Positions 543-58,276 are shown, counted from the first letter of the whole stretch. The stretch is DNA of 60,844 nucleotides, filler included, from Diploschistes diacapsis (GCA_023645945.1; 6 parts of 6 records of this genome joined end to end with filler, not necessarily neighbours in it); one strand, 5' to 3'. The notes: generated by a model from the letters alone, not told the origin. A program made the numbers and translations.

Positions 543-3500
543 TCAGATCAAATCGTCTTCAGCTTCTGGAAACTCGACAACATCCTCCTCTGCCTCTTCT
601 TGCGCATCGTAAAACTCCTCGTAGCACAGCTCTTCCTCCGCTTCTTCGGTTTGATCCTCTCCACACCATTCTCTAGTAGCTTTGGGATCGTGCTCAAATA
701 CCGTCTCCTCGCAGCGGTCATGCTTTTGAAAGAAAGGGTGATTCTCGGCAAGTGGCTTGCCCTGACAGAGGTACCCCATCGGAGTATGTAGGAAATCTTG
801 CCCTTTCCGACGAATGGCAAGCCAGTCGTGAAGGAAGTTCAGTGGGTTCTTGGGGAAGCTCGTCTTTTGAGCAACTGCCCCACCTAGCTTGCCATCGGAA
901 CCGTTGATCGAGTGGGAGCCCTCCTGGTCCTTCTCGGTCTGGCCATGCTCGATCGTGCCCGATGTTTGATCGCCTGGCGTCTCCAAGCCAAGGTATTCCT
1001 GTAGCTCCTGGTATTCATCGTACTCGAAAAAGAGTCTACCTGCGAACAAACCAAGCTCGAGCATTAGCCACTTTGGAGCGTTCCAATCCTTGGGAAGACT
1101 TGGAACAGCATAGTAGTCCAGTCGATTGAAGGTTAACATCTTCCTAGTCACTGGAGCCGCATATGTAAGCAGGTGAGCAAGATGTACATCGGCACGGGCC
1201 ACTATCGGCATTATAAGCTCGGCTTCCTCAGGAGTAACGACCAAAGCTGCCTGATAGCTTGAGCTCCAGACGATCCATTGCACGGGACGCTGTGATCAAG
1301 GTTAGCTCATGTTACTAAGTCCTAGATTCGACATACAATAAAATTGTCGTTCGGTTGACCTGTGGGGGTGCTTACGGTCCTCGAGAATTCGGTCGAGATG
1401 TACAATTTGCACGCAGCGCCAGCACTCAAGTCATATTTACGACCCAGGGCTGTGAAAGCCAAGGCCTTCATCATAGGCTCGAAACCCGTAGAACCAACTA
1501 CAAGCCTACCAGTCCGTGAAAAAACCGCCACATCTCGATGGAGCCCCCCAAAGGAAAGTGCGCTGAAATGCACGGGCTTTTGAGCCTCGCGAACAGCTTC
1601 GACCTCGTACGCAGTCTCCCGTTCTTGCTCGACCTCTTGCAGAGCGGATCCGTGTACAGCGTCACCCGTGTCTCGAAATTGCCTCTTGCGAGTAGCTAGA
1701 TCTTTCATGTATGCGATAAGTTGTTGATTTGAGAACTCAGATAGTCTTGAAACCCTGTTGCGCACTCGTGGCGAATAGAGCTGCTCTAGAGTTTGTCTTT
1801 CTAACTGTTTTAATGTCCGGAGACATTCATCCCTTTGTGATTGCATAGTAATAAACTCGGGATTGCTGACCAATGTTTGCATACGTCTGCAGAAATCAGC
1901 TCCCTGAGAGTAGTATAGGGGCTGCAACTGTTCAATGCCCATGCACGTTTGTTCCAGAAGCCATGAAATGACGTCGTGGGAATCTACCCTTCCCATCAAA
2001 GGTTTTTTGCGGAAATCTAAGATGCTTTGATGAACTTCAGGAGGCGCAATGAAAGTTATAGACTGTGTGGTAGCTAATTGGCGAAGTCTCATGGCTGCCT
2101 GAACTGTATGATCTTTAGTTTGACCCAAGCCTAGAGTTAGAGCTCCGCGTGCATCGGCAGGGAGTTTCAAATCTGTGCCTCTTGTATGCGCTTCGTCAAG
2201 ATATACAACGCAATCGAGTGGGTTTTCCGCGAAGGGTGTCGCTAGTAGAGGTACCTTTACCCCTTGGCGATAAAGAACGTAGGGCTTATTACCATCATCG
2301 AAATAGATTGCGGCAGCAGCTTTGGTATCGATAGTCAACCAACGTCTAGCCAAGGTAATGTTGTCCATCTCGAGAATCTGGGCGCCCGCGTCTATCAAAA
2401 CTCGTATGCCTTTATGCTTTAATTTTGAAAGTAGTTCATCCTCGGATAGTCGGAGCCCTGTGTTGCGTTTAGCTGCGAGTTCATACCTCCTGTTACGATC
2501 CTGAAGCAGATAGGTCAGTACTTCTGCATTCGTATGTAAGAGAGTAGGTAGGTCTTGTTGTTTGACGATTAGTGGTAGCATTGACCTGTTGTCATTTGTC
2601 CCACTAAATCCCGTAGTAAGGCATTTAGTGGGCTGAGCCCTTTTGTGGACGTGGTCTGTACTGTCGGGTGCGTTCAAAGAAGTAAAGCAAGGAATGTCCC
2701 ATCCGGAAGCGCAGAGCTTTACTTGGAATTGCTTCGCATGGCGGGGGAAAACGAAAGAATTCAAAAAATGATTGATGACCGTTGCCGAATAGCGGAAATG
2801 ACTCCAAAGCTCCTTCAATTGTACCTCATCCTCCACATTCACAGCCCTCCACTCTTTCAAGGAATTGGGGACACTACCGCACCTTTGAGCCCACCGGTCG
2901 TACTCAATCGAAGGATCATCGGACTTCAAGACGAACTCGAGGCTTTGGCGAAGCTGCTTCATGCTCAGCCCACCGTAGTAGAATGACAAACATGAGAAGA
3001 GAATAGCGACATCTGATACCCAGTTAAGCAATGATCAAACGTATCATATGAGCAGTGTAAGTTACCTGGATGACCCCATTCGGCATTCTCTGAAGGTACA
3101 CCCTTTGCGTGATCTATTGAACGATTGTTTATATCGAGCGATACTAAAACGAGTCCAGAATTTACTTACATGGTACGGCGATTGGGTCGCGCTTCGGATG
3201 AAGTCCATACTGCACATTCCACCGCTTTTTAATTGCTAGCAACAAGATTCGATGCACCAACAGCCCTCGCAACAAGTAAATCTTTTGACGAACGGCGATT
3301 TTGCCGGGGAAGCTTTTCCGAACCATTTCGACATTCTTTTCTGACACCTGTGCTTGTGAAACGAATTGCTTTATTGCAGTACGCAAAGCATCTGAGCATT
3401 CTCTCAGTGGTAATATGCCGGTGTGTCCTTTACAAATGTCCTCAGTTACTCGCGCTATGAGAGTATCCTCGGCGTCTTTGCGAAGAAAGAATATCATTGG

Positions 3501-6500
3501 AAAGCCTCCAGGTCGATCAATGATCTCCAGACTGCAAGGGAATGTATTTTGAAGGTCCCAAATGTGGGCCCCTACAAGATGCAAGATTAGTTCCGCAGTC
3601 TCCCATCGGTGCGGATGTCCGTCAACGACTGATCGAGTTCCTGAAGGATATATCAGCTGAGTACGGACAGCAAGTGCTATGTCACACTCGTCAAGAATGT
3701 CTCTTGCCACTTCATTAATCCACGCTTGAACTTTAACCATTGGTTTCGCTTCCGCTAAACGATTATCCAAGGTTCGCTGAAGGCCACCTAACTTAAAGGA
3801 TAAGATTTGCTCCGGGACAGTCAATACGACGCCACGAGCCTTCCAGACGCTTCTATGGATATCGTAATAATTTTTGATGTGCTCCGTATCGGTAGGGGTT
3901 TTCCTTGAGAATGGAATGTGCCTTGTCTCACGTCCGAGCAAACCTCCAAGTCGATCGTGGAGAAGCTGTGCAGTCTGCAATAGTAGAGACTTAGGTACAA
4001 CCACCCTCGCAAGACTTTGACCGTCTGCTAATATTACTGATACCATAGGAATGATACAGGAAGTCTTGCCTTGTCCCATGTTCATTTGCAGTACAGCGTT
4101 TGCTTGGGACACAGGTGTTATTGTTGCTAGGGCTACCTCTACCTGTGTTTTCCGAATCATAAGATCAGCCTCAATCTCTAAAAGAAGCCAATCCGGATAA
4201 TCTGAAGGGCGCCAATTCTCATGGCCTGGATTTTCCTGCTCTTCTAAGACCCTACGGGTATCGTCCCTTAATAAAGCATCTTCAATGCGACGGCCACGTT
4301 GATAAGTGGTAACAGATAAAGCATACTCGATAAGAGCTTCTTTCATATTTGTGCCAAAGGCGATCTGGGAGCTAGAACGAAGCTGTGGCAAGAGCGAAGT
4401 AGGAGTGACACAAGGCCAGAGGTCACCCAGTGTCAACCACGGCGCAAAGTGATCGGCTTCCTGTATAGCTGTGACAATTCGCAAGAAATTATGTTGGACC
4501 TGTCCCAGAGCTTTAGTGGACATGCGTCCTACACCTACCAAGTCGAAGCTGACTGACTTCTCTGTTACTCTGTTTTGTGTTGTCATAAGGGCATCAAGAC
4601 TTCGCCTTAGATCAAGCCCGTATTGCTTTCTGACATTGGAGTCTGAAGAGATGAAACGTTCCACTATGCTTTTGAGTTCCGTAGCGCTTTGTGGTATTGG
4701 AATCTTGGTGTTTTGACTCCGATATGATCCTTGACTTTGCTTCGAAATGCTGCTCGCACCTTCTAATGTACTTTGGTCAAGACAGCCCGCGAGTGCAGAT
4801 CCTCGTGTCAAATCCGGCCCGCATCTCTGCATAAGCTCTGCTAGGTTATGATTGCACGTTAACGGCTTGGTTATGGAAGCGTACAGCTCCTGACTCTCGA
4901 CCACTATTCTAGGTCTTCCTAATTGTCCGTCGAGGAAATGAAGGTCTAAGATATGTTGGACTTGCTCTATGTGCTTCGAGAGCTCCATGTTTTGGAAGCA
5001 AGATTGCCATTCTGGAATTATGGCTTCAATTGCCTGTTCAATGTCCAACTTAACTTCATGAGAAAACCCTTGTATAGTTGGCCGTACGCAAGGCCACTGC
5101 CGTAAAAGATACTGGGATAAGTCCCTGCAATCTTCTTCAACTTGCTTCATATGGGTTCGCTCGGTCAGCTCCAGCTTTCTGCGCATCTTTCCGCTCACAG
5201 GAAACAAGCTGCGCTCATCGCCGGGATATGGCGTACGGGCAGGCTTCATGACCCTTACCAGATCCTCTTCACTGAGCACTCGGTAAAGCTTGAAATCGAG
5301 ATACGAAGGCCACATTGGTGTGTCCAGGAGCGATAGATCGTGAAAAACGGCATAAGCAATTAAAACGCGTATAGCTTCCATGTTGGCATCATACCGAAAC
5401 ACGATAACGGCGAACAGAAACATTAGCGCATGCCTGTCATCAAAGCTTGATCCTCTGCAATGCTGCGCTATAGAACCCCATGATACGGCGATGTCCAAGC
5501 TCAACAGGTCACTGAGAACCACAACATCAAGTTCTTGGGCGTATCCGCCTATTGTGGGCCATTTTTGCAATATACCAGCCAGGTCTCTTGTGGTGCCAAT
5601 GGTTTCAGGCCAATCGCGAAGAGTAGATACTACTTCTAATACATTGTCGTTCCGCACGCTTGCTCCATATCTATCTCGTGCTTCATAATCTTTAGTTACG
5701 GGATCATGTTTCTCAAGACCTGCATATGGTCGTTGATATCGTCTGAACCTCTGTATGTTTCGCATGAGTAGCTTCCTGTCTCCCCCATACTCAAGTCCAG
5801 GAAGGCTGGTTTCTTCAAGTCCAAACGTGGCTAATTGCTCCGACTTTTCGCGGATAGTCTCGACGATCCGTCTAAACTCCTCATGCTGAATTGTGATTGT
5901 TAAGTCAGGATTCCATTGCGTCGTTTTCATCTCTCGAAGTCCCTTCAGGTAATACTCGAGCTTTGGAGAAAGCTTGGCGATGTGGTTCAGGATGTTGCAC
6001 GGAACTGTGGTAAGAGGCGTCCACGGCTGCGAATTCCCCATGTTCAGTATTTCTATTGCTTCCTCGGTGCCTGTTCGAGATGTCAAAGTGTCGGCGACAA
6101 CAAATGAAGTAGACGCATGCAATAAGGCTTTGAAGTAAATCAAACATGGCTCGGGAGGACTTTCGATCCGTCCAAGGATGTCATTCACAATGTAACGACA
6201 GTAGGTTCTTCCGTTGTTCACTATATGCACTATGACATGCGGTCCATTCCGTTTGTACGTCAAGTCGCCGAAGGGCATAACCACACTCCGTTGACGTGAA
6301 TTGGAGAGACTCCTGAGAACCAGCTTGCTATATAAGCCATAAAAACAACCGCAATCCTGGTTGTAGTCTATTTCCGCTTGCAGTTGCTTAGATTCCAACA
6401 AGCCTTTGTAATTAACCATGAAGAAGAGCTCCATCCGCCGAAGTTCAACTGATAATCTGTGCCGGCCTGGCTGGTAGACTGTTAAAAAATGTGAATGCTC

Positions 6501-9500
6501 CCATTGATCGAATATACGAGCGACTCGTTTGAAAAGCATCGAATGTGGATCGACAAGGCATGAATTTCGTCGATGAACGCGACGAGACTTGAGATTAAGT
6601 ATCCAATTACTCGGAATAGTTGTCCAAATGTTCGGTTTCCTCCTGATCTCGATTTCTCCAGTACGAACGTTCATCCAATGCAAGCAGTCTGAAACGAGAG
6701 GATGTGGGAGGTCGAAATCGAGATTGTTGAGTCGGTTCCCGAAGATGTTTCTCGGGATGAGCTCGAGAATGTTATTGGCGATGTAAGCCCGAATTATCAG
6801 TTTGTCGTCCCGAAAGCCAATTTGAATCTGATGTCCTTGATAAGTGACTGGCAATACCCAAGTCATAAAAGGATCTGCTGAGGGATAAATGAGCAGGTTT
6901 TGTTCTCCAAAAAGCTCACGCAGCACGTGGGATTCTCTATGCTCTGCCGGTAGCTTTCCTAGGGAATGACCGTTCAAAAGCAGGTGGCCTTCGAGTAAAT
7001 GGAAATGAACCAATTGAGGCATTGTCGAGAGATCCGGCGTCAATATCGTCCGAATCCACCAATCCTCCGTGTATGTGAATTGGGAGAAGGGCCTGGGTGA
7101 GGTATCCTTGAAGCTTTCCCAAAGGAAGTCGACCGCGAAGTAAAGACTATCAGGGCTGGCATCGAGCGAGTCGCGAAGGAGAAAACGCATCGGCCTGACC
7201 ATCTTTAGATCCGTAACGAGTGCATTCCGAAGCCGGAGGGGAAGATTAGTGGGATCGCTGTCCATGTGGTCTTGCATCGCTACTGAGCTCCGGATGAAGC
7301 ATCGAAGCGCGTCTGGGTCGAGTAATCCGGGTTTTTTTGCGTAAACCCAGAGGCACCTCCTCCCTAGAATGGCTGCCCAGAGTGCATTCCTCGAGCATCT
7401 GTGCGAAACGGTATTGTCTGTCGCCTTGCGGAGATCGACGCGCAACAACGCAAGCCACTTCAATATGATTGCTCGAGCCTTTTCCAGAATTGCAGCAGCC
7501 TTTTGCTGAAGCAATGACGACGTTGCAAGAGAATGTAGCCTTAATGTTAGATTGATAATCATTTCCATACAATTCGTTTCCCTGTAGTTCAACTTTATGC
7601 TCTCCAGTCGCTCTGAAATTCGATCGGCCAACGACGAACAAAAATACTCATCCCTGAAAATGCAGTGTATCTTCCGAAGAGGATCGCCGTCCAAGCCTGG
7701 CCCGGCCTGACTTATCAATCGAGATACCAGCGTAGACGGAGAATCCGAGCTGAAATTCAGCGAGGAAGAGCCTAACTCGACCAGAATCAGAGGCCAGCGG
7801 CAAGACCTTCCTGTATAAAGAGATTGATATGCCAAGAATTCATGAACGGTGAGACCACTCGGACACCTTGTCTGACTGGCACAAATCTCAGCAGAAGATG
7901 GACCGCTCGACCCAATAGTAAATTGGGGAGACAAATTCACGAAAGAGAACGGCGAACTCGTTTCTACCTTTATCTGACAATGATGTGCAAAAGTTGGTCT
8001 TTCTTTCTCTCTAGAGGGCCAAGATTCTGTTGCCGAATCATAATAGCCCCATTTCAAGCCGTTTGGAAGGCACACTTGCTCTATGTCAACAGGAAACGGT
8101 ACTTCCGAATGGTGAGTTTGGAGAAAGGACTTTACGTTTGAGGCCAGTGACACACGACGGTGCACAGGCCTTCTGTATGCCGTAAGCTCAGAGTAGTCTT
8201 GAAGCAGCATTTTCGGCCTGTGGCCCTCAATATGTCCTTGACGAGCGCAGGTAGCGAGGATTCTTCGAGTCACATCGCGGTATACCACGAATGCTTCAGG
8301 ACACCGCAACTCGAATATAACCGCCCGAAGCCTCGTCTCGTCAGCTGGGAGGGGACGCTCGTGGACTCTGATTCTCATGCGAGAGGCTTTACGCTGCAGG
8401 TAGCATTTCGTACATGCCCGATCATCGTGTACGCGCACTAATGGTTGACGCTCGTCGGTTGTATATGCGCAAGCACTTCCATCAACCTTCTTGATCAACT
8501 CTTCGTAGTCTCGACTCAGGTTTTGGAGCTCCACCTCTTTACGGGAGCGAGCCGTCTCTGCTTCGGCCTCTATCTGAGCTTTGAGAAGTTGGAGCTCTGG
8601 TGCAGCCTCAGATTCCAAAAAGTACCGCTCAGCGAAACAACCTACCACCGGATCAGCGAAAATTGACAAATGCAGCTTATTGCTGCATGTGCGGCGATAA
8701 TGTAGATGTGCCTCGATTTTTTTCAAACGATCCATATCCTTCCGTAAAGGCACATGCAAGATGTCGAACAATCCTTCTGGAAACCCAGGATGATAATCTT
8801 CCAGAAGTGGGAAAGCCTTCAAGGCATGCTGATCCATAGATGTCCAAAGATCCATTGCAGTCAAAATCATGACACTGCTCTGCTCAGGGTTCGCCATGTA
8901 GGATTCACCAATAGTGTCCAGATAGACATTGATCTTGTCCGCTATCCTTGTACACTCGCGCTCATCGCTCGTTTTCGGTACGGTAGATCTCCTATGAAAT
9001 TCAACGTTCAGCTCTTCTTCCAAATCCGATAGGTGGAAGTAGCGCATGGAGAATGATTTGAACTGCTTCGTCGCGGCTGTTGAGGTTTCGAAGGCAAGGA
9101 TAGCTTGCCAATGATTGGGCTTCACCTTGGAGCGATCATGCGGTGGACGGAGCAATACTTGGTTCAAGTATCCGAAACTATTTGTCAGGGTGAGCCGGAG
9201 TTCTGTGTCTTTCGCCCGTTGAGGTAAGGGAGTAATCCTCCTTAGCGAATTGCTCTTGAATTCCGTCCAAAGAGCATAAATATGAGCATTGGCCTTCTGG
9301 AGGGTGGAGTGAAACCTTGCATTCAAGTTCTCGAAAAACGTCTTGTAAATTTGATTGACATGGCCTTCCGACGATGACATTTCCGCCTCCAACTTGGCGA
9401 TTCTGCGACAGACCTTGGCTTTGAGAAAGTGGATGAGCTCGGGGCTGAGGCTATCAATTGTGTCTTCCAAAGTCCGCGTCATCAGTAGAGCAAGCAAAAC

Positions 9501-10379
9501 TTTGTAGTGAACTCTTCCGGTAGCACCTCCTAAAAGAGTGCTCAAACGTCTCTGAATACCCACGCGCAATACAAGCCACATGGGGGAGCGTCTCCAAGGT
9601 CGCTCAGCCCCATCTTTCCAGCTAGCATCATCCCTTACTCGCTTCCTCAAGAGGGGTGGAAAGGTGCGGTTCCCATTAGCTTCAAGAATGGCCACGAGCA
9701 TCTGCGTAATGATGTCCGGAGTTGCGGTGTTACGGCTCTCAAATGCGCCAGAGCCGGCCTTGCGCGTCTGCGCAGCGGACTGTTTAATAGATTCTGTGCT
9801 TGCCCGTTCAAGGAACCTGGAAAGATTCTTCTGAAAAGGGGCGTCCGCGAACTGTGCCCAAGGAACTGCTGCCGCAGAACCGGGGAAATCCCAGCGCAAG
9901 GCATTTTCGGACGCTAGGACATCGGACGAAATGGGTGAAGCCTCGAAAGTTTCGAAGACGACGTGGTCTCCAACATTGCTGCACACATGTCAATATAGCC
10001 CAAGAAGCTATCTGCTGCTGTTGGAAGTTCAACCGTACCTTTCTTGCCGATAGACGAGCAAACCAGCGTTTTGTTCAGCAACTTGTAATATCAGAATATC
10101 CTTGTTTGCAAGTTCACCAAATTCCCGAACCAAGGATCTTGATTCTAGCCTCCTGTTGACATTCAGGGCCCTACATGTTTGCAAGGAGCGGCGGAGATGA
10201 TCCCAGTGAAGGCCCAGTTGGCAAACAGTAAGCTCCTTGGCAGTATTCAAGAGGCGTTCTATGAGATTGTCTTCGATTTGAGGAAGCTGGCTATCCAAGA
10301 CGCCCGGCAACTTTCTTGGTAGTGCAACATGGTTGAATACCGCTTCCAAAAATGCGGACTCTGGCCTTGAATAGCTCAT
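543..10379 (-). CDS. Giant (~3206 aa) DUF6606/DUF3638/DUF3645-type P-loop ATPase-like protein; exons 10379-10039, 9978-3170, 3113-3066, 3012-1337, 1289-543
   Basis: Four listed ORFs plus a 48-nt exon join in frame through GT-AG introns (9621 nt). Family motifs: FNHVALPRKLP, RKRVRDD..PWRRSPMWLVLRV, QMNMGQGKT, DILDECD, RWNVQYGL..AVPYHAKGVPSENAEWGHPDV (rebuilt across two introns), GFSGTND, YLDEAHTRGTDLKLP, VQAAMRLRQL. Confidence 0.9.
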
Positions 10380-19781: not shown

Positions 19782-22046
19782 ATGGCTCAACTGCTCACGA
19801 CTGCCCTTGAGAAACAAGCTCTTGAGAAACGGGGTGTGCCGGAAAAGACAGTATTGGAAAATACTACGCTTACCTACGGTCCTGATGAATTCCAGGCTCT
19901 CAAGCCAGTCTACGATAGCACTCATCGCCGATTGAGGCCCAGGCATATTCAGTTGATAGGCATTGGAGGGTCAGTGAGGCTATCTACAAGCTGAGTCCCG
20001 TTGCGTGTACCTCCTGACTGCCTTATAGTACTATTGGTACAGCCTTGTTCGTCGCTATTGGGGTATGAGCCGGGTCGGTTTTCTGAAGAACGATGGCGAG
20101 TGACACTCATCCAGGAAGGTCTTATCAATGGAGGGCCAGCGTCTCTATTCCTAGCCTTCACGATATGGTCAGTCGCTTCCACCCTTGTTCTCGCTCACAT
20201 GGGGCCTTTCAATCCGGTTAGGGGGACAATGAACGCTGTTGGCTCCACCAATCGCTCGTTTCGAGTATCTTTGCTTTCCTAATCAGGTTCCCAGGTGTTC
20301 GTTCATTCTTGCCGTTACCAATTGTAGGTTGCCTCGAAATCTCTTTCACGGAGTTCTCAGTGGTATCAGCCAGGTAATAACTTGAATATTGGCAAACTTT
20401 GGGCGATTATCAAACGAGCCGCGAGCGGCAGAACGATGCCAGTCTCGTGGCGAGCCGTGCTCTAGGGTTACGATGTCCTATCACAGCCAGCCTTCAGACA
20501 CCATTACATCAAAGTCTAGTCGAGTCGAGCTAATGGGCCCACAGGCATGGCCGAAATGGTGACTTATCTGCCTATTTCTTCGCCCTTCATCCGATTTGCG
20601 AGCAGATGGGTTGACGAGGCCTTCGGGGTGGCTGCTGGATACAACTTCTTTGTCTTCGAGGCAGCGCTTGTGCCGTTCGAAGTTACAGCATGCAACATTG
20701 TGATCAATTACTGGAGCGATGCTATTCCCGTTGGCGGGGTGATAGCTGTGGTTCTCGTTCTATATGCGTTGGTGCCCCCAAAGACCCCTCGGATGTCATG
20801 ACCAGTCTCGCGCACCTCGCTAACTTTTCCTCTGGTGAAGGTCCATCAACCTTTTCGCTGTCAAATGGTATGGCGAGTCAGAGTTCTGGCTTGCCATTGG
20901 AAAGGTGATCCTTATTGTTGGCCTAATCATTTTCACTCTCCTTGCGATGCTCGGAGCGAACCCGCTGCATGACCGTTATGGTTTCCGGTACTGGTACGAT
21001 CCGGGCTCTTTTGCCGAGTTCTACAGCACCGGAAGCCTCGGACGATTCATGGGGTTTCTAGCTTGCTTCATCCAGGCCTCTTTCACCGTTGCAGGTCCGG
21101 ACTATGTTTCGATGGCTGCTGGTGAAGCCGAGAACCCGCGGAGTGCAATGCCCAAGGCATATAACGCTGTTTTTTACCGTCTGACTGCTTTCTTCATTCT
21201 AGGTGCGCTCGCAGTGGGGATCAACGTACCGTACAACGACCAAAACCTTATCAATGCTTTTGACAATGGCCTGCCAGGCGCGGCTGCTTCTCCGTACGTT
21301 GTAGCGATGAATAGACTGAACATCCATGTCCTTCCGAATATCATCAACGCTCTCATCTTGGCCTCGGCTTTCAGCGCTGGGAATTCGTACGTATATTGTG
21401 CGTCTAGGTCTCTGTACGGGCTGGCGCTGGAGGGCAAGGCGCCCAAGCTTTTGACACGGTGCACCAGAAATGGCGTTCCAATTTACTGTGTTCTGATAGT
21501 CCTGCTCATCGCGCTGCTCAGTTTTCTGCAAGTTTCGAATGGAGCGAGCGTCGTTCTCGAATGGTTGGTGAATCTTGTGACCGCGTCGCAACTGATCAAC
21601 TTTTCCGTGATGAGCTTTACATACATACGTTTCAAGAAGGCCTGTGATGCTCAAGGCCTGTCGCGTGATTCGCTGCCGCACAAAGGCTGGCTCCAGCCAT
21701 ATGCAGCATACTACGCCCTCTGCGGCACGTTCGTTATGACATTTGTCGGGGGTTATGAGGTTTTCCTCCCGGGAAATTGGGATGTACCGACGTTTCTTTT
21801 CTCGTATACGATGATCTTCCTCTTTCCCGTCCTATTTCTTGGCTGGAAGCTGATCCGGCGCACCAAATGGGTCGAATCCCACGAAGCGGACCTGACAAAG
21901 GATCTGGAGGAGATTGAAGAGTACACGAGGTCGTTTGTCGAGCCTCCTCAGACGTGGGTTACTATGCCTCATTGGTGTGTCGTGGGCGCTAACAGACGTA
22001 CAGAAACGGCTTTTTTGGGTTCTTAGATAAGGCGTTTGGTTCCTAG
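19782..22046 (+). CDS. Amino acid permease, APC/YAT family (AGP2-like, ~560 aa); exons 19782-19969, 20029-20062, 20115-20167, 20295-20323, 20545-20767, 20841-21953, 22004-22046
   Basis: RRLRPRHIQLIGIGGTIGTALF, MAEMVTYLPISSPFIRFASRWVDEAFG, YGESEFW, AGEAENPR, GNSYVYCASRSLYGLA; exons sum to 1683 nt in frame. Confidence 0.93.
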
Positions 22047-25783: not shown

Positions 25784-28135
25784 ATGGGGAGCGCAAGGCG
25801 GCGGACAATTGGCGACGACGATGGCAGCGTGCTATCGGTTCCAGACATTGAGAAATATGATTACCGACGCAATTCCACCGGCTCCGACGCCTCACAATAC
25901 TCGCGCGGCAACTCGAGATCACGGTCCCGGTCGAGGTCGGCGTCGCGAGTCGTCTCCTATGGCTCGGCAGACCTTATGCTTCCTCCGAGCACGCCGGTAA
26001 GATACAGGTTCAACAGACCCTTGTACCATTACCGCATACCAAATCGGACGATACGTTGGCTCTGCATTGCGCTCATGTCCACAGTCGTGCTTTTCATACT
26101 AAGCCTGATACGAATGGGAATGATGTCTACGAAAACGCTGGAAAACATCATGAATGAACGCCCACCGCCTCCTGCGCCATGGGAGAGATTTCCGTTCCTC
26201 AAAAGGTACTATGGAGGTTTGCGAACTTTGACTCCGCGCAATCTGAATGCGCCAGAATATCCGACAGACAACATCACATTTATCCAAAAGGAGGAGAAGG
26301 GGAAGCGAGCTATACCCGAGAGCACCCCCCTTGGCGTTTATTCTCAGTTCAAAGCAGAGACTCCGGGTGTTGTAGAGTGTTTCTTAGATGCGGAAGATAG
26401 GATAGGTGTACCCGATATCTTTACGTACACTGGGATTCCGCAAGGCTTTCCAGAACCGGTGATGGGTTCGTCGCATGAACTTGGGTTGTCCGATTCAATA
26501 TGTCTTGACCGATATGGAAGGTTGGGCCCCTACGGATTTGGATACAGTAGGAACAAAGGTGGCACCGGGGCCGGAGTCGAAGGCGAAAGAGAGGGAGCAG
26601 ACATTGTATGGGCGAAAGAGTCACCAATCGATTACTCGAAAATCAATTGGCACGATGCGCAGACCCGTTGTTTTGAGAAGAACAAGCACAGATTCAGCGT
26701 CAAAGATGTGGACCTTGTGGAGCCCTGGAAATCTATGCCAGCGAAGAGAGATTCAGAGAGCCTTGGAATTAACGCGGACTCAACTCCAAGCTTGGACTCG
26801 TTGTCTAGACGAACCAGAACCGCTATAGTCATCCGGACATGGTGGGACTACGATTACATTCCCGAGACAAATATGTATCTGAGGTCTTTGATCTCTGAGC
26901 TACCCCTCCTTACGGGCGGAGAGTACCAGGTCCATTTTCTAATCCATGTCAAAGATGACAATGCACCGATCTGGGCAGATCCAGACACATACAATCGTGT
27001 GCTTGAGAACGCTCTCCCTGCCGAGTTCCGTGGCATGGGAACCCTCTGGAGTGAGCGGCAGATGAATCTCATCTACGGCGGGCTGCCGGAAAGCAACTAT
27101 CGAAATCTTCCAGTACACGGTGTGTACAGAAGTACGCATATGCCGTTGCAATACTTTGCTCAAAAGCATCCCGAGTATGACTATTTCTGGAACTGGGAAA
27201 TGGACGTCCGGTATACTGGACATTGGTACATGCTGTTCGAAGCAGTGAGGAAGTGGGCCAAGAAGCAGCCACGAAAAGGTCTGTGGGAACGTAATGAGCG
27301 GTTCTACGTTCCGGAAGTCCACGGCACATGGGACGACTTCAAGCACATGGCTCGCGTGCAGTCAGAAATGCCCGACCAACCGGCCTCAAGCAAGTGGGCA
27401 AACCTCGGCCCAAACGGGGCCCAGCGACCGGACCCCAGGATCGACAAACCGATCTGGGGTCCGCTCGCGCCCGACGATGTCGGGAACTTCCACTCGGACC
27501 CCGTCCCGCCGACGACGTATGAGAAGGACCACTACGAATGGGGCATCGACGAAGAAGCCGACCTCATCACGTTCAACCCCATGTTCGACCCCGACCGCAC
27601 GGACTGGATCCTCGCAGACGACGTGACAGGCTACAATAACACCCCCGGCTTCCTCCCTCCGCGCCGCACCGCCATCATCACCGCCTCGCGCATGTCCCGC
27701 CGCCTGCTGGAGAGCATGCACAACGAGACCACATTCCACCAGCACACCATGTTCTCCGAGATGTGGCCCGCATCCTGCGCGCTGCACCACGGGCTGAAAG
27801 CGGTGTATGTGCCGCATCCGGTGTACATCGATCGCATGTGGCCCGTGCAGGATCTCGCCAAGGTCATGAACAACGGCAAGAACCACGCGGTGGGCGGCGC
27901 GCGGACGACGGTGTTCGGGGACTCGCTGCAGCATAATTTGCTCGGAGTCACGTGGCACTATAATACAGGCTTTGCGCCGAATCTGTGGAAGAGGTGGTTG
28001 GGGTACAAGGTGAATGGCGACGGGGGGGAGGAGGAGGAGATTGCGATGGAGGGGAGGATGTGCTTGCCGCCTATGCTGTTGCATCCTGTTAAGGACATGC
28101 AGTTGGTGATTGAGGGGAGGAGGGAGGGGGAGTAA
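25784..28135 (+). CDS. DUF3405-type type II membrane protein (783 aa)
   Basis: Single TM near the N-terminus; CLDRYGRLGPYG, RTAIVIRTW, LRSLISEL, YDYFWNWEMDVRYTGHWY, WGIDEEADLITFNPMFDP, SEMWPASCALHHGLKAVYVPHP, RMCLPPMLLHPVK. Confidence 0.88.
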   Translation: MGSARRRTIGDDDGSVLSVPDIEKYDYRRNSTGSDASQYSRGNSRSRSRSRSASRVVSYGSADLMLPPSTPVRYRFNRPLYHYRIPNRTIRWLCIALMSTVVLFILSLIRMGMMSTKTLENIMNERPPPPAPWERFPFLKRYYGGLRTLTPRNLNAPEYPTDNITFIQKEEKGKRAIPESTPLGVYSQFKAETPGVVECFLDAEDRIGVPDIFTYTGIPQGFPEPVMGSSHELGLSDSICLDRYGRLGPYGFGYSRNKGGTGAGVEGEREGADIVWAKESPIDYSKINWHDAQTRCFEKNKHRFSVKDVDLVEPWKSMPAKRDSESLGINADSTPSLDSLSRRTRTAIVIRTWWDYDYIPETNMYLRSLISELPLLTGGEYQVHFLIHVKDDNAPIWADPDTYNRVLENALPAEFRGMGTLWSERQMNLIYGGLPESNYRNLPVHGVYRSTHMPLQYFAQKHPEYDYFWNWEMDVRYTGHWYMLFEAVRKWAKKQPRKGLWERNERFYVPEVHGTWDDFKHMARVQSEMPDQPASSKWANLGPNGAQRPDPRIDKPIWGPLAPDDVGNFHSDPVPPTTYEKDHYEWGIDEEADLITFNPMFDPDRTDWILADDVTGYNNTPGFLPPRRTAIITASRMSRRLLESMHNETTFHQHTMFSEMWPASCALHHGLKAVYVPHPVYIDRMWPVQDLAKVMNNGKNHAVGGARTTVFGDSLQHNLLGVTWHYNTGFAPNLWKRWLGYKVNGDGGEEEEIAMEGRMCLPPMLLHPVKDMQLVIEGRREGE

Positions 28136-47330: not shown

Positions 47331-48187
47331 AACCAACGACCGTCACGAAGCGAGGCGTTCACCGAGCAGGCTTTTCTACACATTCGTTCACGATACCACT
47401 GGAGAGGCAATAACCCACAGACTTAGGGGACCGGAATTTTTGTTTTGGCGGGAGCCGCCATAGCCCATTCGTTTCAAGGCACATAGTTTGTTTTCATGCA
47501 TGCAATCGAAACGGACCCGAATCGATTAGTTTTTTTTTTTTTCAGAGCCGCACAATCGATGCACGTCGGCTCATTTATGCTTAATCTCTATGCATTGTTA
47601 ACTGCCCACCTGCGCCCCTATCTGCCTCATATATCCTCCCCCCAAAGAAAAGCGGTCCCGCGGAGCCGCCCCTTTTTGGCATGCGGTTGGCTCCCAACAA
47701 CATGCATCGAAAGCAACAATTTAGCAACACCTCTTTACATAGGGTACCTAATGTTCAAACAACGAAGATGGTTCTCGACCCCGAGCCCAAGCGCGACCGT
47801 GGCGGGTCTATGGGGAAAACCCAACCAAACCGTCTTTAGAGCCGCTCTGCCGTGTCCCCTCCACGAACCGACCGTTTTCCAGACCTGCCCCCGGAGATAT
47901 AAAGTATTCCCGTGGTTGAAGCTTTCTATGGTTTTGCTGCACGGTCCAAACTCGGTGGCATGGAGCACACAACCTACTCTTCCGTAACCATGATTCACTC
48001 GTGCCTTACGCTGCTGGATCCATGTGCAAGTTACGTTTCGATGGGCATGAAAAGGGGGGACCCCCCCGGCCGTTGCTCCAGCCAGGCNNNNNNNNNNNNN
48101 NNNNNNNNNNNNNNNNNNNNNNNNNNNNNNNTTAATTAATTAANNNNNNNNNNNNNNNNNNNNNNNNNNNNNNNNNNNNNNNNNNNN

Positions 48188-48484
48188 TCATAATTGTAAA
48201 ATTATAAAAAAAAAATATTTAAAATTATTTCGATAAATATACGGAGACGGATAACGAAATAAAAATTTTTTTAATACGGACATTAACACGGACAGTATAT
48301 TATAATAAAAACACGGACACGGATATTATAATTAAAAATTTTAAAATATTAATATTAATACGAACACTGCACTTCCGTGAATCCACGGACACGGACACTG
48401 CGACTAAAAAATCTAAAATACTGACACTGACATTATCAGTATCCGTGTCACTGACACGGCCGTGTCAGTGTGTTATGATCTCTA
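48188..48484. mobile_element. Putative hAT-like transposon end with ACGGAC/CTGACA subterminal repeats
   Basis: Many (C)ACGGAC and CTGACA units, a 22-bp palindrome at 48449-48470, and a terminus GTGTTATGATCTCTA (reverse complement TAGAGATCATAACAC, resembling the hAT YARNG consensus); AT-rich. Confidence 0.5.
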
Positions 48485-48559
48485 TCTCTATAATGTAGAC
48501 ACGAGGTATTGATTAAGGTGGTTTTGATCTCTGTTAGAAGAGGAGTATGATACATCACG

Positions 48560-48740
48560 AAAAGTTTTTGGCGGCGAAACACCGCGAAAATCCGCAAGGT
48601 TGGCGAAACTAGCGAAACCGGCGAGGTGGGCGACAGATAATGCGTTCAAGCGACTCGTTAACTTTCGTTAAAGGTTTGGCAAAACCGGCGAAACTAACGA
48701 AACTAACGAAACTGGCGAAACTGGCGTGTTATGATCTCTA
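48560..48740. mobile_element. Second putative hAT-like end with GCGAAAC subterminal repeats
   Basis: Repeated (G)GCGAAACT/ACGAAACT units ending in the same GTGTTATGATCTCTA (48726-48740). Confidence 0.45.
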
Positions 48741-48801
48741 TTTATACAAGGTATACACGAATAGGATCAAGGTGGGTTTGGTTTCTATTAAAAAAGGAGT
48801 G

Positions 48802-49233
48802 TGTTGAAAGTGGTGGAAGTTCCTAATAGATAACTGATGACTAAGAGTGTATTCTTCAGCTAGTCCTAACTAGGGAATAATCCTAGCCTGCCTAGCCTGG
48901 TAGCTGACTATTGTTTAATGATTATATTGAAGAGGTTTTAGGTTATAACTATGAACGATGGAGGGTGAGAGGCCTTTTATAGGCACATTTCACGCTAGTG
49001 TGATTAGTAATAATCTAATCTAGAATGTTCCTTATCCTTTCAAATCATTCCATGCATTAGTAAGCCGAATATTCTAGAATATTCTAGAATATTCGATGAT
49101 ATTTAATAATCTTCGATGATGTTCTATTATGTTCTAGAATATTCTAGAACCTTTTAGAACCTTCTAGAATATTCGAACATGCTAGAAGCTTAATAAGCAA
49201 TTTGACTAACCTATTTAGGTTAGTATTCTGACA
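48802..49233 (-). mobile_element. Solo-LTR-like element (~432 bp)
   Basis: Bounded by TG..CA (TGTTGAAAG..TTCTGACA); minus strand has GCCTATAAAAGGCC followed by a pyrimidine tract; internal TTCTAGAATA repeats; related copies at 28582, 51697 and 52272. No clean TSD, and orientation is inferred from the TATA only. Confidence 0.6.
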
Positions 49234-49400
49234 AAATCTAAGTTTTTATACTAAAGGTGGCTTCTCCACCTGAGCCACCGCTAAAATTTATGACCGTCAA
49301 TATTTCGGTCGGAATAACTGCCCCCGATTTGGCTTAATGTGCATTCAAGCTTGCGGCTTTAGAATTCCACACTTGATTGGTAATAACCTGTCAGTAATTA

Positions 49401-49685
49401 ACGTGTTTCATCACTTAACGGATCACACCACAAAGCGGCTCACAATCCCTGCACCTTCGTAAAATATATTTCTTAACATTTTCACCTTTCGTACAAATAA
49501 TTTTATATGTGGTTGTGGGGCTCAAAAGCTCGCTTAAAACTATCTAGCGCATCCATATTTGTACGAAGCTAAATCTGTTCTCAACTACAACTACCCCGTT
49601 CTTCGGCCTTTAAGAAATACACTTTACGAAGGTGCAGGGATTGTGTTCCGCTTTGTGGTGTGTTCCGTTGTGTGGTGAAACACGT
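49401..49685 (+). mobile_element. MITE, 285 bp, 63-bp TIRs, TA target duplication (Fot1/pogo-like ACGT ends)
   Basis: Left TIR ACGTGTTTCATCAC..CCCTGCACCTTCGTAAA (49401-49463); imperfect reverse complement at 49623-49685; TA on both flanks. Confidence 0.88.
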
Positions 49686-49870
49686 TATGAGATGCGAGAC
49701 CGAAATACAGCGTAAATAGTACTAAGGTTGTGCTATCTTCCTCTTGTCCTCAAACGATTGCCTATCTGTGACTTATCTCCATGCTTCGACGTGCTCATCA
49801 AGGCCTGCTTTGAATGTCGAACAACTGATCATGGGCGCATATGCAGAAACCAACGATGAGAGACATGCCT

Positions 49871-51503
49871 TCATGCAGTTTGCAACCAACTTTCCGGACC
49901 ACTGCCGGTTCTTCTTCTATCTTTTTTCAAGGGAGAGAATTCTTTGAGCAATCCAGCCGGTGGACGTCCGCCTCTCGGAGCTAAAGTAATTCTGTGGGAT
50001 CCAACAAAACCTGACTTCGCCGGTCGTTCAGCTTTGTCCGCTCTGCCCTCGTCGTCCTCGAAGATCATTCTCCCTGAAGCTGGTCCAAGTATCTTTCTTT
50101 TCTTTTTGTTCAAGAAACCCATGGCTATTTCATCAATCTGTGGGTGTCCCCTCACCCCTCCTCCATTGGCTGCGGTATCCGGTTCAACGGTATATATTGG
50201 AGATAAAAGAGCAGTATCCAAGATCTCTTCCGGAACTCGATCCAGGCTTGTAGGTTTCTTGTTACCTCCTCGACTCCTCGATCTTGTAAGATTTTTCGCG
50301 TTAAAGACTGGCTTAATCCGGGGTGGCTTCATTTCCTTTTTGCCCGATGCATATTCAACAGGTGAAGATGTCACAGTCGTGCGAGAATCTTCCGAGTGTT
50401 CGGAGGCAGGCTCATCTGATGCTTGTGGAGACCTGTTAGGCGGTAGGATCGCTGTGCGATTGAGGAATGGGGTTATAGAAAAAAGTGATTTGTCACCAGG
50501 CAGCGCGGATCCACGCCTCAACTTCTTTGTGGCCGGCATGGTACCCGGTGTCCCAATTGCTGTGTCCTCCCTTACTTGTTGTATGTTTCTGTTCTTCGGA
50601 TTCTTGGCAACTTGGACCAGATTGAACGTGCTATGGTTTGCCAGGCTCGAACGACTTGTAGTCTGGACCTCCTTTAACTGCTCCCGCGTGGTCTTGAGTC
50701 TTACTCGAAGGGCATCGATCTTGGACTCTAGAAGGTTTCGTTGTGACTCAAGTTCCACTTTTAGTTTGCGCCCTTCACTTTCGTACCTTTGGCAATCCTT
50801 TCGTTCCCGTGCCAAATCCGACTGCAACAATTCTAGTTGTGATTTGAGGTGCACATGATCTGTAGATCTCTCGTGCTCTTTTGAGATGGCACGCTGAAGT
50901 GAGCGCTGTTCTGTCTCCAGCTCCACCCTAACTGTATTCAGCTCTCTTTGTAAGGATAGTTTTTCTGCCAATAGTTTTTCGCCAACCGTGCATTGTGCAC
51001 GTAAGTGTTCAACCTCTGCTTTCATAACTGACATTTCCCGTGATAAAGCAAGCTTTTCAGCAAGAATTGCTGTCGAGTCTTTGGAGACGACACGGAGAGA
51101 TCTCAGCTCTGTCTTCCGAACCGTCAGTGTCAAGTTTCCAGTAGTCGTTGGCTTAGTACCTCAAGGTTCTCAGCCTCCCGAGACTTCGAATGCAAGGTTT
51201 CTTCTAATCTTTTTGAAGTCCGCTCTTGGTCCAAAACCTTCTGCTCCGACTGCTCCACGCGGCGTCTCAGAACACTGGCGTGATTCTGTTCAGAGCACAA
51301 CTGTAGTTGAAGTTGCGAGTTCTGATCCTCGGAGAGCAAAAGCTTGACTTCCAGCGTTCTCGTCCTTTCATCCCCAAGAACTACGTCGACAAATCCCTGA
51401 ATTCTGGCATATGCTAGCTCCAGCGCGTGTAAGTCCTTCCACAGATTAGTACTTCTCCAGGTTAAGGAGGAGGAGTACTAACCAAATGAGACGTATTATG
51501 CAT
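49871..51503 (-). CDS. Coiled-coil protein with basic NLS-like C-terminus (~512 aa); exons 51503-51483, 51435-51160, 51112-49871
   Basis: Heptad-rich N-half with repeated LAEKLAL/LAEKLSL; GDKSLFSITPFLNRT, KKKRKILG, FSPLKKDRR; exons sum to 1539 nt. The first exon is less certain. Confidence 0.82.
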
Positions 51504-51757
51504 CACGATGCTAAAACTAGATACACTTTAATCAACGTTGAAGCTGGCTAAAAGTAGTTGATGTCATACAGGCAGTATCACTATACATAATATATAAAAA
51601 GCGCGATTGTTTCGGTTGCCGAAAGTAAACAAAAGCTAAACACTATAAAGTGACCGGTCAGAATGAAGGGTAGCACCGCTTTAGTAAGCGCCACGCCAGA
51701 ATACTAACCTAAATAGGTTAGTCAGATTGCTTATTAAGATTTTAATGCATTTAAATA

Positions 51758-51967
51758 ACGTGTTTCACCACTTAACGGATCACACCATAAAGCGGCTCAC
51801 CACATTATAATGTAGATGCGCTAGATAGTTTTAAGCGAGCTTTTGAGCCTTATAACCACATATAAAATTATTTGTACGAAAGGTGAAAATGTTAAGAAAT
51901 ATATTTTACGAAAGTGCAGGGATTGTGAGCCGCTTTATGATGTGATCCGTTAAGTAGTAAAACACGT
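51758..51967 (-). mobile_element. MITE, 210-bp derivative of the 49401 family
   Basis: TA|ACGTGTTTCACCAC..AAACACGT|TA; the interior is the reverse complement of 49401-~49555. Confidence 0.88.
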
Positions 51968-52019
51968 TATTCTAGAACATAATAAAATATTAATAATAAT
52001 TATCGAATATTATCCAATA

Positions 52020-52229
52020 ACGTGTTTCACTATATAACGGATTATCTCACAAAGCGGTTTATAATCCCTGCACCTTCGTAAAATATATTTCTTAACATTT
52101 TCACCTTTCGTATAAATAATTTTATGTGTGGTTGGGGGGCTTAAAAGCTCGCTTAAAACTATCTAGCGCAATTATATTATAATGTAATGAACCGCTTTGT
52201 GGGGTGATCCGTTATGTAATGGAACACGT
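52020..52229 (+). mobile_element. MITE, 210-bp derivative of the 49401 family
   Basis: TA|ACGTGTTTCACTAT..GGAACACGT|TA; same interior (CCCTGCACCTTCGTAAAATATATTTCTTAACATTTTCACC) with C>T/G>A changes. Confidence 0.88.
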
Positions 52230-52379
52230 TACCCCAGATTATTCTAGAATATTCGGTTTATTAATTAGCACAATACTAACCTAGATAGGTTCGTCAGATT
52301 GCTTATTAAGCTTTTAATATATTTAAAGGTTTTAAAAGGGTTTAAAAGGTTTTAGGAGGTTCTAAAAGGTTCTAGAATA

Positions 52380-53644: not shown

Positions 53645-54069
53645 TATTTTAAAGCATAATAAAATATCATCGAAGATTATCGAATTGTAAACGATAGAAT
53701 ACGATAATGTGACAAGATGGCTTTAGCAGGGTGGATTCATGCTAGGACTAATTACTAGAGAAGAGGAGAGAGTAAGAAGGGTAAAATCCCCTTTTCAAGT
53801 ATTAGTCAGCCAAGATCCTGTATAACGTTTGTACACTTGGCGCCTTTAGCGTTTTTTTAGCTTAGTCTTATAATTATTTTTCTCCTTCCCACTTTGGTTT
53901 TTTAGAATTACCTGTATGGTCCTTTCGTTATTTATTAAGGTAGATTAAGGGGTTAACTTGACTTATATGGTTATTATCTTGATCTCCTAATATAAGTCGA
54001 GTTTGATTAATACCTTGAATCCGCGTCTTTCGCGTAAATCACGTGTTAACGTCTTGTTCTGGCTTTATA

Positions 54070-57623: not shown

Positions 57624-58276
57624 CTTGGCCCGCCGCTTGGGGCCTAGGAAGGGGTTGACGTGCCCCCCGCAACGGCGACAGCTCCGAGTCAAGCGCCTAC
57701 TTGATCCGGAAAAGAGCTCCTCTGGCTCTACCTGGATCAGGTAGTTATAGATGATGAGCGATGTATAAAGAGAGAGGGATCGCAACGGTAGCTATACAGT
57801 TATACTGGCTGAAATCTCATTAGCCGAACGCCAAGAACTGTCAAAGCTCTGGCCCTCCTTCTGCTGCTGCTTTAACAGCTTTATGGAGATGGTTCAGTAC
57901 AAGTAGATACAGAGGTACAGCGGAGCAGTATTATTGTTAACTCTCTATGTATGACTGGTAGTTGATGATGGCACTGAGTATACGATCTGAACTTGAGAGC
58001 TAGGTGTACGAAGTAGTACTCCTGTAGGCGCTTGCTAGGGCAAGACTAGCGAGAGGAACGCGCTAATTCTAATGGATAGAGCAACAGGAAGGTGCGAATA
58101 AAAGTTTGTTGACTTGGTTTGATAGGCCTGTTCTTTTACTTCTCATCCCACTGGGCAGAGTTTTTGATCGAAACTGTTTCGGGGCATGTGCACAGTAGTC
58201 TTGTACGAAGAAATGCCTAGTTATACACTAGTGAGATGGTAGACAAGCATTTCTCACAACCCTGTACTTAACAACC

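Follow-up and report, generated by a model that had tools for sequence, protein, structure and literature searches.

A predicted SecA-like ATPase motor in a giant DUF3638-family protein of Diploschistes diacapsis

The best-conserved part of the giant DUF3638 protein family is a working-looking ATP motor, most like SecA, the bacterial protein-export motor. It was analysed in one gene on a window of 60,844 nucleotides, filler included, the whole stretch of Diploschistes diacapsis DNA (GCA_023645945.1) studied here. The observations are probably best explained by an intact gene of this family that encodes a complete SF2 ATPase of SecA-like architecture. Its motor would move a polymer or remodel a partner, and its N-terminal head would not be a deubiquitinase (DUB).

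The giant gene and its family

The gene occupies window positions 10379-543 on the minus strand and encodes a product of 3206 aa in five exons. All introns are of the GT..AG type (60, 56, 53 and 47 nt). The product aligned colinearly over all four junctions with the database proteins P0001, P0002 and P0004, at 50-52% identity over the full length. This nuclear gene of a filamentous ascomycete is intact, lies among ordinary housekeeping genes, and specifies an ordinary member, ~3,200 residues long, of the giant DUF6606-DUF3638-DUF3645 family. Its features are as follows.

543..10379, minus strand: whole coding region of the giant gene (splice model with a single open frame)
10379-10039, 9978-3170, 3113-3066, 3012-1337 and 1289-543 (stop included), minus strand: the exons (splice model)
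9270..10379, minus strand: N-terminal head, residues 1-350, DUF6606 (Pfam DUF6606 match, homologue model, conservation)
4350..9269, minus strand: middle region, residues 351-1990, less conserved (conservation profile)
3642..4118, minus strand: first part of RecA1, residues 2068-2226, with motifs I (GQGKT, 4088-4062), Ia (VVPKSLLLQT, 4013-3978) and II (DECD, 3701-3681) and the extension VRTQLIYPSG (3680-3639) (DUF3638 match, homologue model mapped on the window protein, column conservation)
2723..3641, minus strand: insert domain, residues 2227-2496, about 270 residues (secondary structure of the homologue model)
3200-2993, minus strand: DUF3645 motif inside the insert, residues 2374-2406, split by two introns
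2510..2722, minus strand: last part of RecA1, with motif III, TTGFSGTND (2617-2591) (homologue model and its mapping, column conservation)
2006..2509, minus strand: RecA2, residues 2568-2735, with IDAGA (2395-2381) and motifs V (LDEAHTRGTDLKL, 2200-2162) and VI (QAAMRLRQL, 2101-2075) (homologue model and its mapping, column conservation)
1586..1981, minus strand: long helix, residues 2744-2785 (1981-1856), and helical region to residue 2875 (helix 742-783 of the homologue model)
714..1507, minus strand: C-terminal alpha/beta domain, residues about 2902-3150 (homologue model, pLDDT about 90 over much of the domain)

In the window protein DUF3638 (PF12340) was matched at 4e-90 (298-301 bits against a cut-off of 31). 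DUF6606 (PF20255) was also above its cut-off of 27, on two exons (1.2e-16 and 8.4e-55; 61 and 186 bits). P0001 (record name Geoglossum simile, 3198 aa) has the same three Pfam families, PF20255, PF12340 and PF12359, in the same order and is of the same length class; giant proteins of this type have all motor motifs in common with the window protein, with no difference of substance. The searches returned 1277 relatives at E<=1e-5 and 2754 clusters of 50% identity at E<=1e-3. For the motor, no database identity exceeded 63%, and the D. diacapsis copy is therefore absent from the collection searched. Nine giant-virus DUF3638 proteins share the whole motor-plus-tail architecture (E 1e-29 to 6e-14); four Hokovirus proteins appear in the same comparison. 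No functional study of the DUF6606-DUF3638-DUF3645 family was found in the literature.

Computed sequence properties gave no clear membrane segment in the giant protein. A Pfam scan of the middle region (residues 351-1990) found no family match; a C617-H631-C636-C639 cluster in it (window 8477-8394) is visible in the family consensus. The C-terminal alpha/beta domain is acidic (pI 4.63), and a protein atlas search with it gave no usable match.

Motifs and structure of the motor

A preliminary description of the sequence had reported five SecA-like motifs in canonical order, with a long DUF3645-bearing insert between motifs II and III. All five strings were recovered in that order and in a single reading direction.

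4088-4062, minus strand: motif I, QMNMGQGKT, residue 2078
3701-3681, minus strand: motif II, DILDECD, residue 2207
2617-2594, minus strand: motif III, TTGFSGTN, residue 2532
2191-2162, minus strand: motif V, AHTRGTDLKL, residue 2674
2101-2075, minus strand: motif VI, QAAMRLRQL, residue 2704

The span 2076-4094 is the interval from motif I to motif VI and includes two introns and a 48-nt micro-exon, which carries the DUF3645 core (YHAKGVPSENAEWGHP). Conservation was assessed column by column in an alignment of 184 homologues of 37-66% identity. Walker A K2085 is kept in 181 of the 184, and Walker B D2210, E2211 and D2213 are each present in all of them. Every catalytic column is kept in 178-184 of the homologues. 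The check proposed at the outset, conservation of motifs III, V and VI, came out in favor: G-F-S-G-T of motif III is found in 182-183, R2677, G2678 and D2680 of motif V in 182, Q2704 of motif VI in 183, and R2708 and R2710 in 178, the remainder being gaps. Judged from this alignment, conservation of the five motifs is far above chance. The hallmarks of SF2 proteins, from Walker A and Walker B (DExD) through motifs III and V to the motif VI arginines, thus occur in order. The motor region is predicted to be a catalytically complete two-RecA ATPase of SF2 type (K2085, DECD, GFSGT, RGTD, R2708/R2710).

The reported insert is real: the spacing between motifs II and III is 318 residues, and in the homologue model this stretch forms a separate, mostly helical domain. 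DUF3645 (PF12359) was matched in all 25 relatives scanned, and in the spliced product the motif, AVPYHAKGVPSENAEWGHPDVAI, is the same or almost the same as in P0001, P0002 and P0004. Three of its columns stand out: K2387 (180/184), E2395 (183/184) and H2398 (183/184). The insert also holds one of the two 50-residue windows that rank highest in the conservation profile.

Since introns split the motor in the window itself, structure comparison used the AlphaFold model of a homologue, P0199 (45% identical over 1148 residues; pLDDT 83.1, pTM 0.72). SecA (PDB 1tf2, 2fsf, 1m6n, 5eul and 4uaq) was the nearest solved structure in three PDB searches. Foldseek placed SecA or SecA2 at ranks 1-13 (E 1e-6 to 2.7e-5), and a second look with VIA-align gave only SecA at ranks 1-17 (Z 16.6-18.2, rmsd 4.1-6.0, 403-555 residues aligned). 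In an unbiased search of 48,161 chains, SecA (17.9), SecA2 (17.6) and a SecA motor (15.5) ranked 1-3, followed by FANCM (14.9). All matches among the best 50 of each PDB search were SF2 proteins, which points to two tandem RecA-like domains, as seen through a 45%-identical homologue. The RecA1/RecA2 pair and the SecA best match that had been expected were both found, and neither a non-SecA best match nor loss of motifs III, V and VI was seen.

The SecA alignments cover residues 1 to about 825-863 of the P0199 model, and the longest (518-555 residues) are to SecY-bound SecA structures. Motor-only SecA constructs gave Z 14.9-15.5 over 344-351 residues in VIA-align. Full-length SecA exceeds them by 2.5-3 Z units, and therefore the region after RecA2 adds to the match; the long helix and the following helical region lie in the span reached by the SecA alignments (to SecA chain residues 757-812). 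Closed, RNA-bound DEAD-box helicases gave Z 16.3-15 over about 340 residues in the same comparison. The lead of SecA over them in the model is modest, about 2 Z units (18.2 vs 16.3): SecA is the nearest solved structure to the modelled motor, with DEAD-box helicases almost as close.

The domains follow one another as in SecA: helices at the N-terminus come first, then RecA1, interrupted between motifs II and III by a large insert, then RecA2 and, beyond it, a long helix and a helical region. The 42-residue helix that comes after RecA2 in the homologue model corresponds by placement to the SecA scaffold helix. The insert lies at the position of the SecA preprotein-binding domain, a likeness of position and not of fold; unlike that of SecA, it is mostly helical, about 270 residues long and carries DUF3645. 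Also unlike SecA, the motor forms one part (residues about 2000-2900) of a soluble eukaryotic protein of 3206 aa, and whereas SecA works with the SecYEG channel and binds signal peptides, the sequence of the window protein holds no pointer to a SecYEG-type partner.

Comparison at the sequence level was less favorable to SecA. Searches of PDB sequences with single sequences and with family profiles returned no SF2 protein, SecA included, at E<=10. No SecA model of Pfam matched the window pieces at E<=10, and SecA_DEAD (PF07517) matched none of 25 relatives at E<=1. The generic DEAD model was matched below threshold in 12 of the 25 (best 25.6 bits against a cut-off of 26; best E 1.2e-5), ResIII in 4 and Helicase_C in none; DEAD or ResIII together with Helicase_C above the curated cut-offs, the Pfam pattern of SF2, was found neither in the window pieces nor in these relatives. 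With hhalign the whole motor gave PriA 9.1%, SecA 2.6% (28-sequence profile), DEAD 1.6%, Mfd 1.5% and UvrB 1.3%. RecA1 gave PriA 30.7%, DEAD 9.8%, Mfd 4.6% and SecA 1.8%; PriA and DEAD thus rank above SecA, every probability being low (<=31%). In a block scan the best-scoring SecA site was the true motif for 5 of 8 motif blocks, and no single block scored above shuffled controls.

The flavor of the motifs is nearer to E. coli SecA than to RhlE (M..G[EQ]GKT, T.LI..SG after motif II, G.[TS]GT.D, RGTD, R.R). The resemblance of the motif strings holds against the actual E. coli SecA sequence (e.g. NQLRGRSGRQG). Motifs Ia (VVPK..L.QT) and Ib (PE..LSF), as they stand in the sequence, seem to resemble helicase motifs no less than those of SecA. 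The pI of the motor (family median 6.88, window protein 8.79) falls between those of SecA (5.5) and DEAD-box proteins (9.55) and decides nothing between the two. Of the proposal that the protein is SecA-related, the architecture and the structural ranks stand, but sequence comparison does not bear it out. SecA ranks first by structure and is not favored by sequence; the motor is therefore built like SecA and is not a member of the SecA family.

The N-terminal head

The fold of the head was tested on a model (residues 1-350) of the homologue P0264, 49% identical. The model matched the Legionella proteins LegA15/AnkD and AnkH (PDB 7kj6, 7xql, 7ew8 and 6mca; Z 15.5, 15.4, 14.4 and 12.4; 250-264 residues aligned), by name LegA15 at 15.5, AnkD at 14.4 and AnkH at 12.4. 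The next match, unrelated, had Z 9.2. On this model the head is predicted to share the LegA15/AnkH-type fold of the non-ankyrin domain; LegA15 and AnkH have ankyrin repeats, whereas the DUF6606 protein has none.

Published work names Q356, C361 and K367 of LegA15 (PMC9757750) and H243, D258 and C324 of AnkH (PMC6712400) as functional residues. Although C361 and C324 are key residues in those papers, no Cys is invariant in 141 fungal heads. Invariant head residues include H17, Q103, N104, E126, E194 and R196. Of the 141 heads, 116 have Ala directly after the invariant Q103-N104, 14 have Cys and 6 have Ser, and 137 have Pro at position 201; the residues in the window protein are Ala105 and Pro201. 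Spacing and secondary structure, taken alone, suggest that Q103/N104, E123/E126 and E194/R196/P201 may occupy the pocket positions. As far as its sequence indicates, a role in binding or in non-thiol catalysis is likelier for the head than one as a deubiquitinase.

Function of the motor and competing explanations

In the preferred reading, that of a polymer-moving or partner-remodelling SF2 ATPase, binding and hydrolysis of ATP at the RecA1/RecA2 interface would open and close the two lobes. This movement would displace the highly conserved insert, with its DUF3645 motif, against RecA2 and the long helix, and the motor might thereby grip or move an extended polymer or remodel a bound partner. 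By analogy with SecA the substrate could be a polypeptide, a suggestion made tentatively, nucleic acid being about equally likely.

A credible but less probable explanation is an SF2 helicase or translocase that depends on nucleic acid and belongs to the DEAD-box-like branch; the likeness would then arise from SecA itself being a DEAD-like motor with added helices. The two-RecA core superposes on eIF4A (9avr), DbpA (7pli) and Dbp5 (3fht), with RNA-bound structures about 2 Z units from SecA, and the sole sequence-level matches are the weak Pfam ones to generic DEAD and ResIII. The preference of RecA1 for PriA and DEAD over SecA in profile-profile comparison agrees with this, as do the basic RecA lobes of the window protein (pI 8.9-9.5). 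However, SecA headed each of the three structure searches, its alignments being longer by 60-200 residues, and Helicase_C matched none of the 25 relatives. DEAD-box RNA helicases lack the 318-residue insert. Motifs III, V and VI are of SecA form and not SAT, ARGxD and HRxGRxGR, and the Pfam scan of all parts gave no known nucleic-acid-binding accessory domain. Rather improbable is an ATP-dependent switch or scaffold in a giant protein of conflict or immunity type, which would change conformation without translocating a polymer. It would suit a large family with many copies per genome, such as the Hokovirus proteins and the at least six distinct 90% clusters of Fusarium lateritium among the top 120 matches. 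A DUF3638/DUF3645 gene is also listed among strain-specific genes of Aspergillus oryzae in PMC6237848, and the sole solved relatives of the head are Legionella effectors. Against it, all translocase-type motifs are kept, both motif VI arginines included, and the neighbors of the gene are housekeeping genes.

Many relatives bear the UniRef name 'ubiquitinyl hydrolase 1', and activity as a deubiquitinase would accord with the head fold, the AnkH domain having been likened to the clan CE protease XopD in PMC6712400. The same paper gives protease activity of AnkH as undetected in vitro, and LegA15 is reported to be a GTPase instead in PMC9757750. The Pfam scan of the window protein found no protease or DUB domain, and the two candidate sites hold Ala105 and Pro201. 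The label is unsupported here because no Cys is invariant in the 141 fungal heads. A deubiquitinase is thus very improbable, and the doubt initially raised about the label was reasonable, even with a fold related to protease-like domains.

A bolder proposal, which we regard as a long shot, makes the DUF3638 family an offshoot, in eukaryotes and giant viruses, of a SecA-like motor, one acting on proteins and not on nucleic acids. A clamp of insert and long helix would grip and move an extended polypeptide or strip a partner from a complex. It would be coupled to a LegA15/AnkH-type head in which the thiol has been exchanged for another conserved polar pocket. If true, a protein-acting DUF3638 motor would provide the first case of a SecA-type motor that moves proteins outside bacterial and organellar secretion. 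The job of this giant family can now be tested through its SecA-like motor.

Gene model and motor motifs

The span 2076-4094 falls within a gene of the DUF6606-DUF3638-DUF3645 family on the minus strand (window 10379-543), modelled from open frames and GT..AG junctions. Four introns of 60, 56, 53 and 47 nt separate five exons, and the spliced product is 3206 aa, to which residue numbers refer.

Exons of the giant gene (open frames and GT..AG junctions)
10379-10039, minus, first exon
9978-3170, minus, second exon
3113-3066, minus, third exon (micro-exon)
3012-1337, minus, fourth exon
1289-543, minus, fifth exon

The splice model is predicted from the sequence. It is colinear with the three nearest full-length relatives over all junctions, at 50-52% identity. 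The 48-nt micro-exon, bordered by the 56- and 53-nt introns, codes for the core of the DUF3645 motif, YHAKGVPSENAEWGHP; a gene caller overlooking it would break the motor. Pfam placed DUF6606 at the N-terminus and DUF3638 over the motif I-II region.

All five motor strings that the preliminary description had reported in order were recovered, at residues 2078, 2207, 2532, 2674 and 2704. Among 184 motor-covering homologues with 37-66% identity, the catalytic columns are each kept in 178-184 sequences, and K2387, E2395, H2398 and D2400 of DUF3645 in 180-183. The conservation profile identified the motor as the best-conserved part of the whole protein, with maxima at DUF3645 and motifs V-VI. A chance origin of the motif set is excluded, and DUF3645 is the most conserved non-catalytic motif.

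A D-E-A-H string (LDEAHTRGTD; window 2162-2200, residues 2671-2683) precedes motif V and mimics a DEAH Walker B box, its E being kept in 166/184 homologues and its H in 180/184. Because of this string, the block scan described below matched the motif V profile to motif II in RapA and DinG. In the middle region, otherwise unassigned (window 8394-8477 minus, residues 615-642), C617, H631, C636 and C639 form a Cys-x13-His-x4-Cys-x2-Cys cluster, also seen in the family consensus, that could be a small zinc-binding knuckle.

The neighbours of the giant gene are ordinary fungal genes.

Neighbouring genes in the window
20839-22026, strand not given, amino-acid permease
25784-28135, strand not given, DUF3405 protein
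56286-57791, strand not given, Sir2-family deacetylase
58235-60842, strand not given, COG4

The COG4 gene is split across two frames. An AT-rich stretch at 48001-54000 (GC 0.34-0.38 for bins 48001-50000 and 52001-54000, about 0.45-0.59 elsewhere) may consist of degraded repeats, and an ORF pair at 49860-51160 has no Pfam match.

Comparison of the motor with SecA

Because the window's own motor is split by introns, a homologue was folded as a stand-in: P0199, a database relative of 1187 aa that corresponds to the last 1150 residues of the giant protein (45% identity over 1148 residues). The model, built on a 43-sequence alignment, reached a pLDDT of 83.1 and a pTM of 0.72. It is composed, in order, of N-terminal helices, RecA1, an insert, RecA2, a 42-residue helix, further helices and a C-terminal alpha/beta domain. 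The insert, of about 270 mostly helical residues, is flanked by the strand that follows motif II and the one that precedes motif III.

Structure searches with the P0199 model
Foldseek against the PDB: SecA at ranks 1-13, E 1e-6 to 2.7e-5; best non-SecA matches LGP2/MDA5, DinG, RapA and Dicer, near 1e-4
VIA-align, second look: SecA at ranks 1-17, Z 16.6-18.2, rmsd 4.1-6.0, 403-555 residues aligned; best non-SecA match eIF4A, Z 16.3, 344 aligned
VIA-align, 48,161 chains: SecA 17.9, 17.6 and 15.5; best non-SecA match FANCM, 14.9

In the second look, motor-only SecA constructs scored lower (Z 14.9-15.5, 344-351 residues aligned), so part of the SecA advantage is owed to the region after RecA2. The longest alignments, of 518-555 residues, were to SecY-bound SecA. 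The C-terminal 248 residues found no usable match in the protein atlas.

Set side by side with E. coli SecA and RhlE, the giant protein carries the SecA form in motifs I, III, V and VI and in the extension of motif II. The block scan placed SecA's top site on the true motif in 5/8 blocks, more than in four other E. coli SF2 proteins; in this motif-block PSSM scan no single block rose above shuffled controls.

Sequence statistics did not follow the structural ranking. Single-sequence searches with either motor half against the PDB sequences returned chance matches only and no SF2 protein, and a 70-sequence full-length family profile likewise matched no SF2 protein, two designed helical proteins being its only hits at E<=10. 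Pfam reported generic DEAD (below threshold) in 12 of 25 shorter family members, ResIII in 4 and UvrD in 2; SecA_DEAD and Helicase_C were each found in 0/25. When the motor alignment was compared by hhalign with single E. coli SecA, UvrB, RhlE, DinG and RapA sequences, none exceeded 3%. Family profiles drawn from 31 bacterial genomes gave scores that are weak throughout, and SecA is not favoured.

hhalign probability (%) against family profiles
SecA (28 sequences): whole motor 2.6, RecA1 alone 1.8
DEAD-box (19 sequences): whole motor 1.6, RecA1 alone 9.8
UvrB (23 sequences): whole motor 1.3, RecA1 alone 0.3
Mfd (23 sequences): whole motor 1.5, RecA1 alone 4.6
PriA (23 sequences): whole motor 9.1, RecA1 alone 30.7

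Structure and motif flavour point to SecA; the sequence statistics do not. The SecA-related reading of the preliminary description is partly supported: in architecture the motor resembles SecA, and it does not belong to the SecA family.

The N-terminal head

The head (residues 1-350, DUF6606) was modelled on P0264, a homologue of 596 aa and 49% identity, with a pLDDT of 85.9. Its strong PDB matches were only four entries, all from two Legionella effectors.

PDB matches of the P0264 head model
LegA15 (7kj6): Z 15.5
LegA15 with GTP analogue (7xql): Z 15.4
AnkD (7ew8): Z 14.4
AnkH (6mca): Z 12.4

These alignments cover 250-264 residues over model residues 1-350, and the next match, at 9.2, is unrelated. 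The study of AnkH calls its domain cysteine-protease-like, akin to XopD, with a triad H243-D258-C324, and states that no protease activity was detected in vitro (PMC6712400). LegA15 is described in a later study as an atypical GTPase dependent on C361 and K367 (PMC9757750).

No Cys is invariant in 141 fungal heads, which leaves a thiol-dependent deubiquitinase reading unsupported for the giant protein. Residues kept in all or nearly all heads include H17, Q103, N104, E123, E126, S128, E194, R196, K226, D230, W242 and R244. At position 105, 116/141 heads have Ala, 14 have Cys and 6 have Ser; at position 201, 137/141 have Pro and 4 have Cys. On the evidence of position and secondary structure, the conserved clusters appear to be spaced like the pocket residues of LegA15. 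A LegA15/AnkH-like head without the thiol is a warning against automatic naming as 'ubiquitinyl hydrolase'.

Family distribution and predicted activity

The family is very large and already catalogued, under DUF names, and the giant gene is an ordinary representative of it. In the 90%-identity collection 1277 proteins match at E<=1e-5, with a best identity of 63%, and in the 50%-identity collection 2754 clusters match at E<=1e-3. The organism-named hits among the best 120 of the 1277 matches, 84 in number, are all ascomycetes. The DUF3638 family is present in fungi and giant viruses: nine giant-virus proteins in BFVD, from Harvfovirus, Hyperionvirus, Fadolivirus, Hokovirus (four), Yasminevirus and one environmental Megaviridae sample, share the motor-plus-tail architecture (E 1e-29 to 6e-14). 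When viral contigs were scanned by pattern, 20 matches came up, of which 0 were confirmed. DUF3638 proteins are also reported in microsporidia (PMC5423893) and Tetrahymena (PMC12615304).

Among database relatives, P0165 joins DUF6606 directly to the DUF3638 end and is without motifs I and III by pattern, and an aspartic protease, DNA methylase or HET domain is present in P0010, P0045 and P0083, which exceed the usual length by 500-750 residues. All four have the look of faulty gene models.

Across prokaryote genomes, the scan turned up two loci only, on two contigs of one metagenomic bin.

DUF3638 loci in a bin whose title names a Deltaproteobacteria MAG
L004:3001-6533, strand not given, DUF3638 gene
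L005:3001-7008, strand not given, DUF3638 gene

These genes share 53% and 41% identity with a fungal relative and are broken into frame-shifting ORFs, in a pattern as from short introns. GC stands at 0.51 and 0.475 in the two, vs 0.44-0.45 at the SecA and DEAD loci of the same bin. A reading as bacterial homologues was rejected on these grounds, and the two loci are probably fungal contamination.

The motor is predicted to be an active ATPase, and probably is one. The preliminary description had favoured a polypeptide as its substrate, to which we give less than even odds; a nucleic acid substrate is about equally likely, and a non-translocating switch is less probable than either. The isoelectric point was uninformative as a substrate clue. 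Literature searches for DUF3638 and DUF3645 yielded, in the text accessible, passing mentions and no functional study, and a search combining 'SecA-like' with 'superfamily 2' found no paper. With a complete SecA-like ATP motor as its best-conserved part, the family gains concrete experimental handles.
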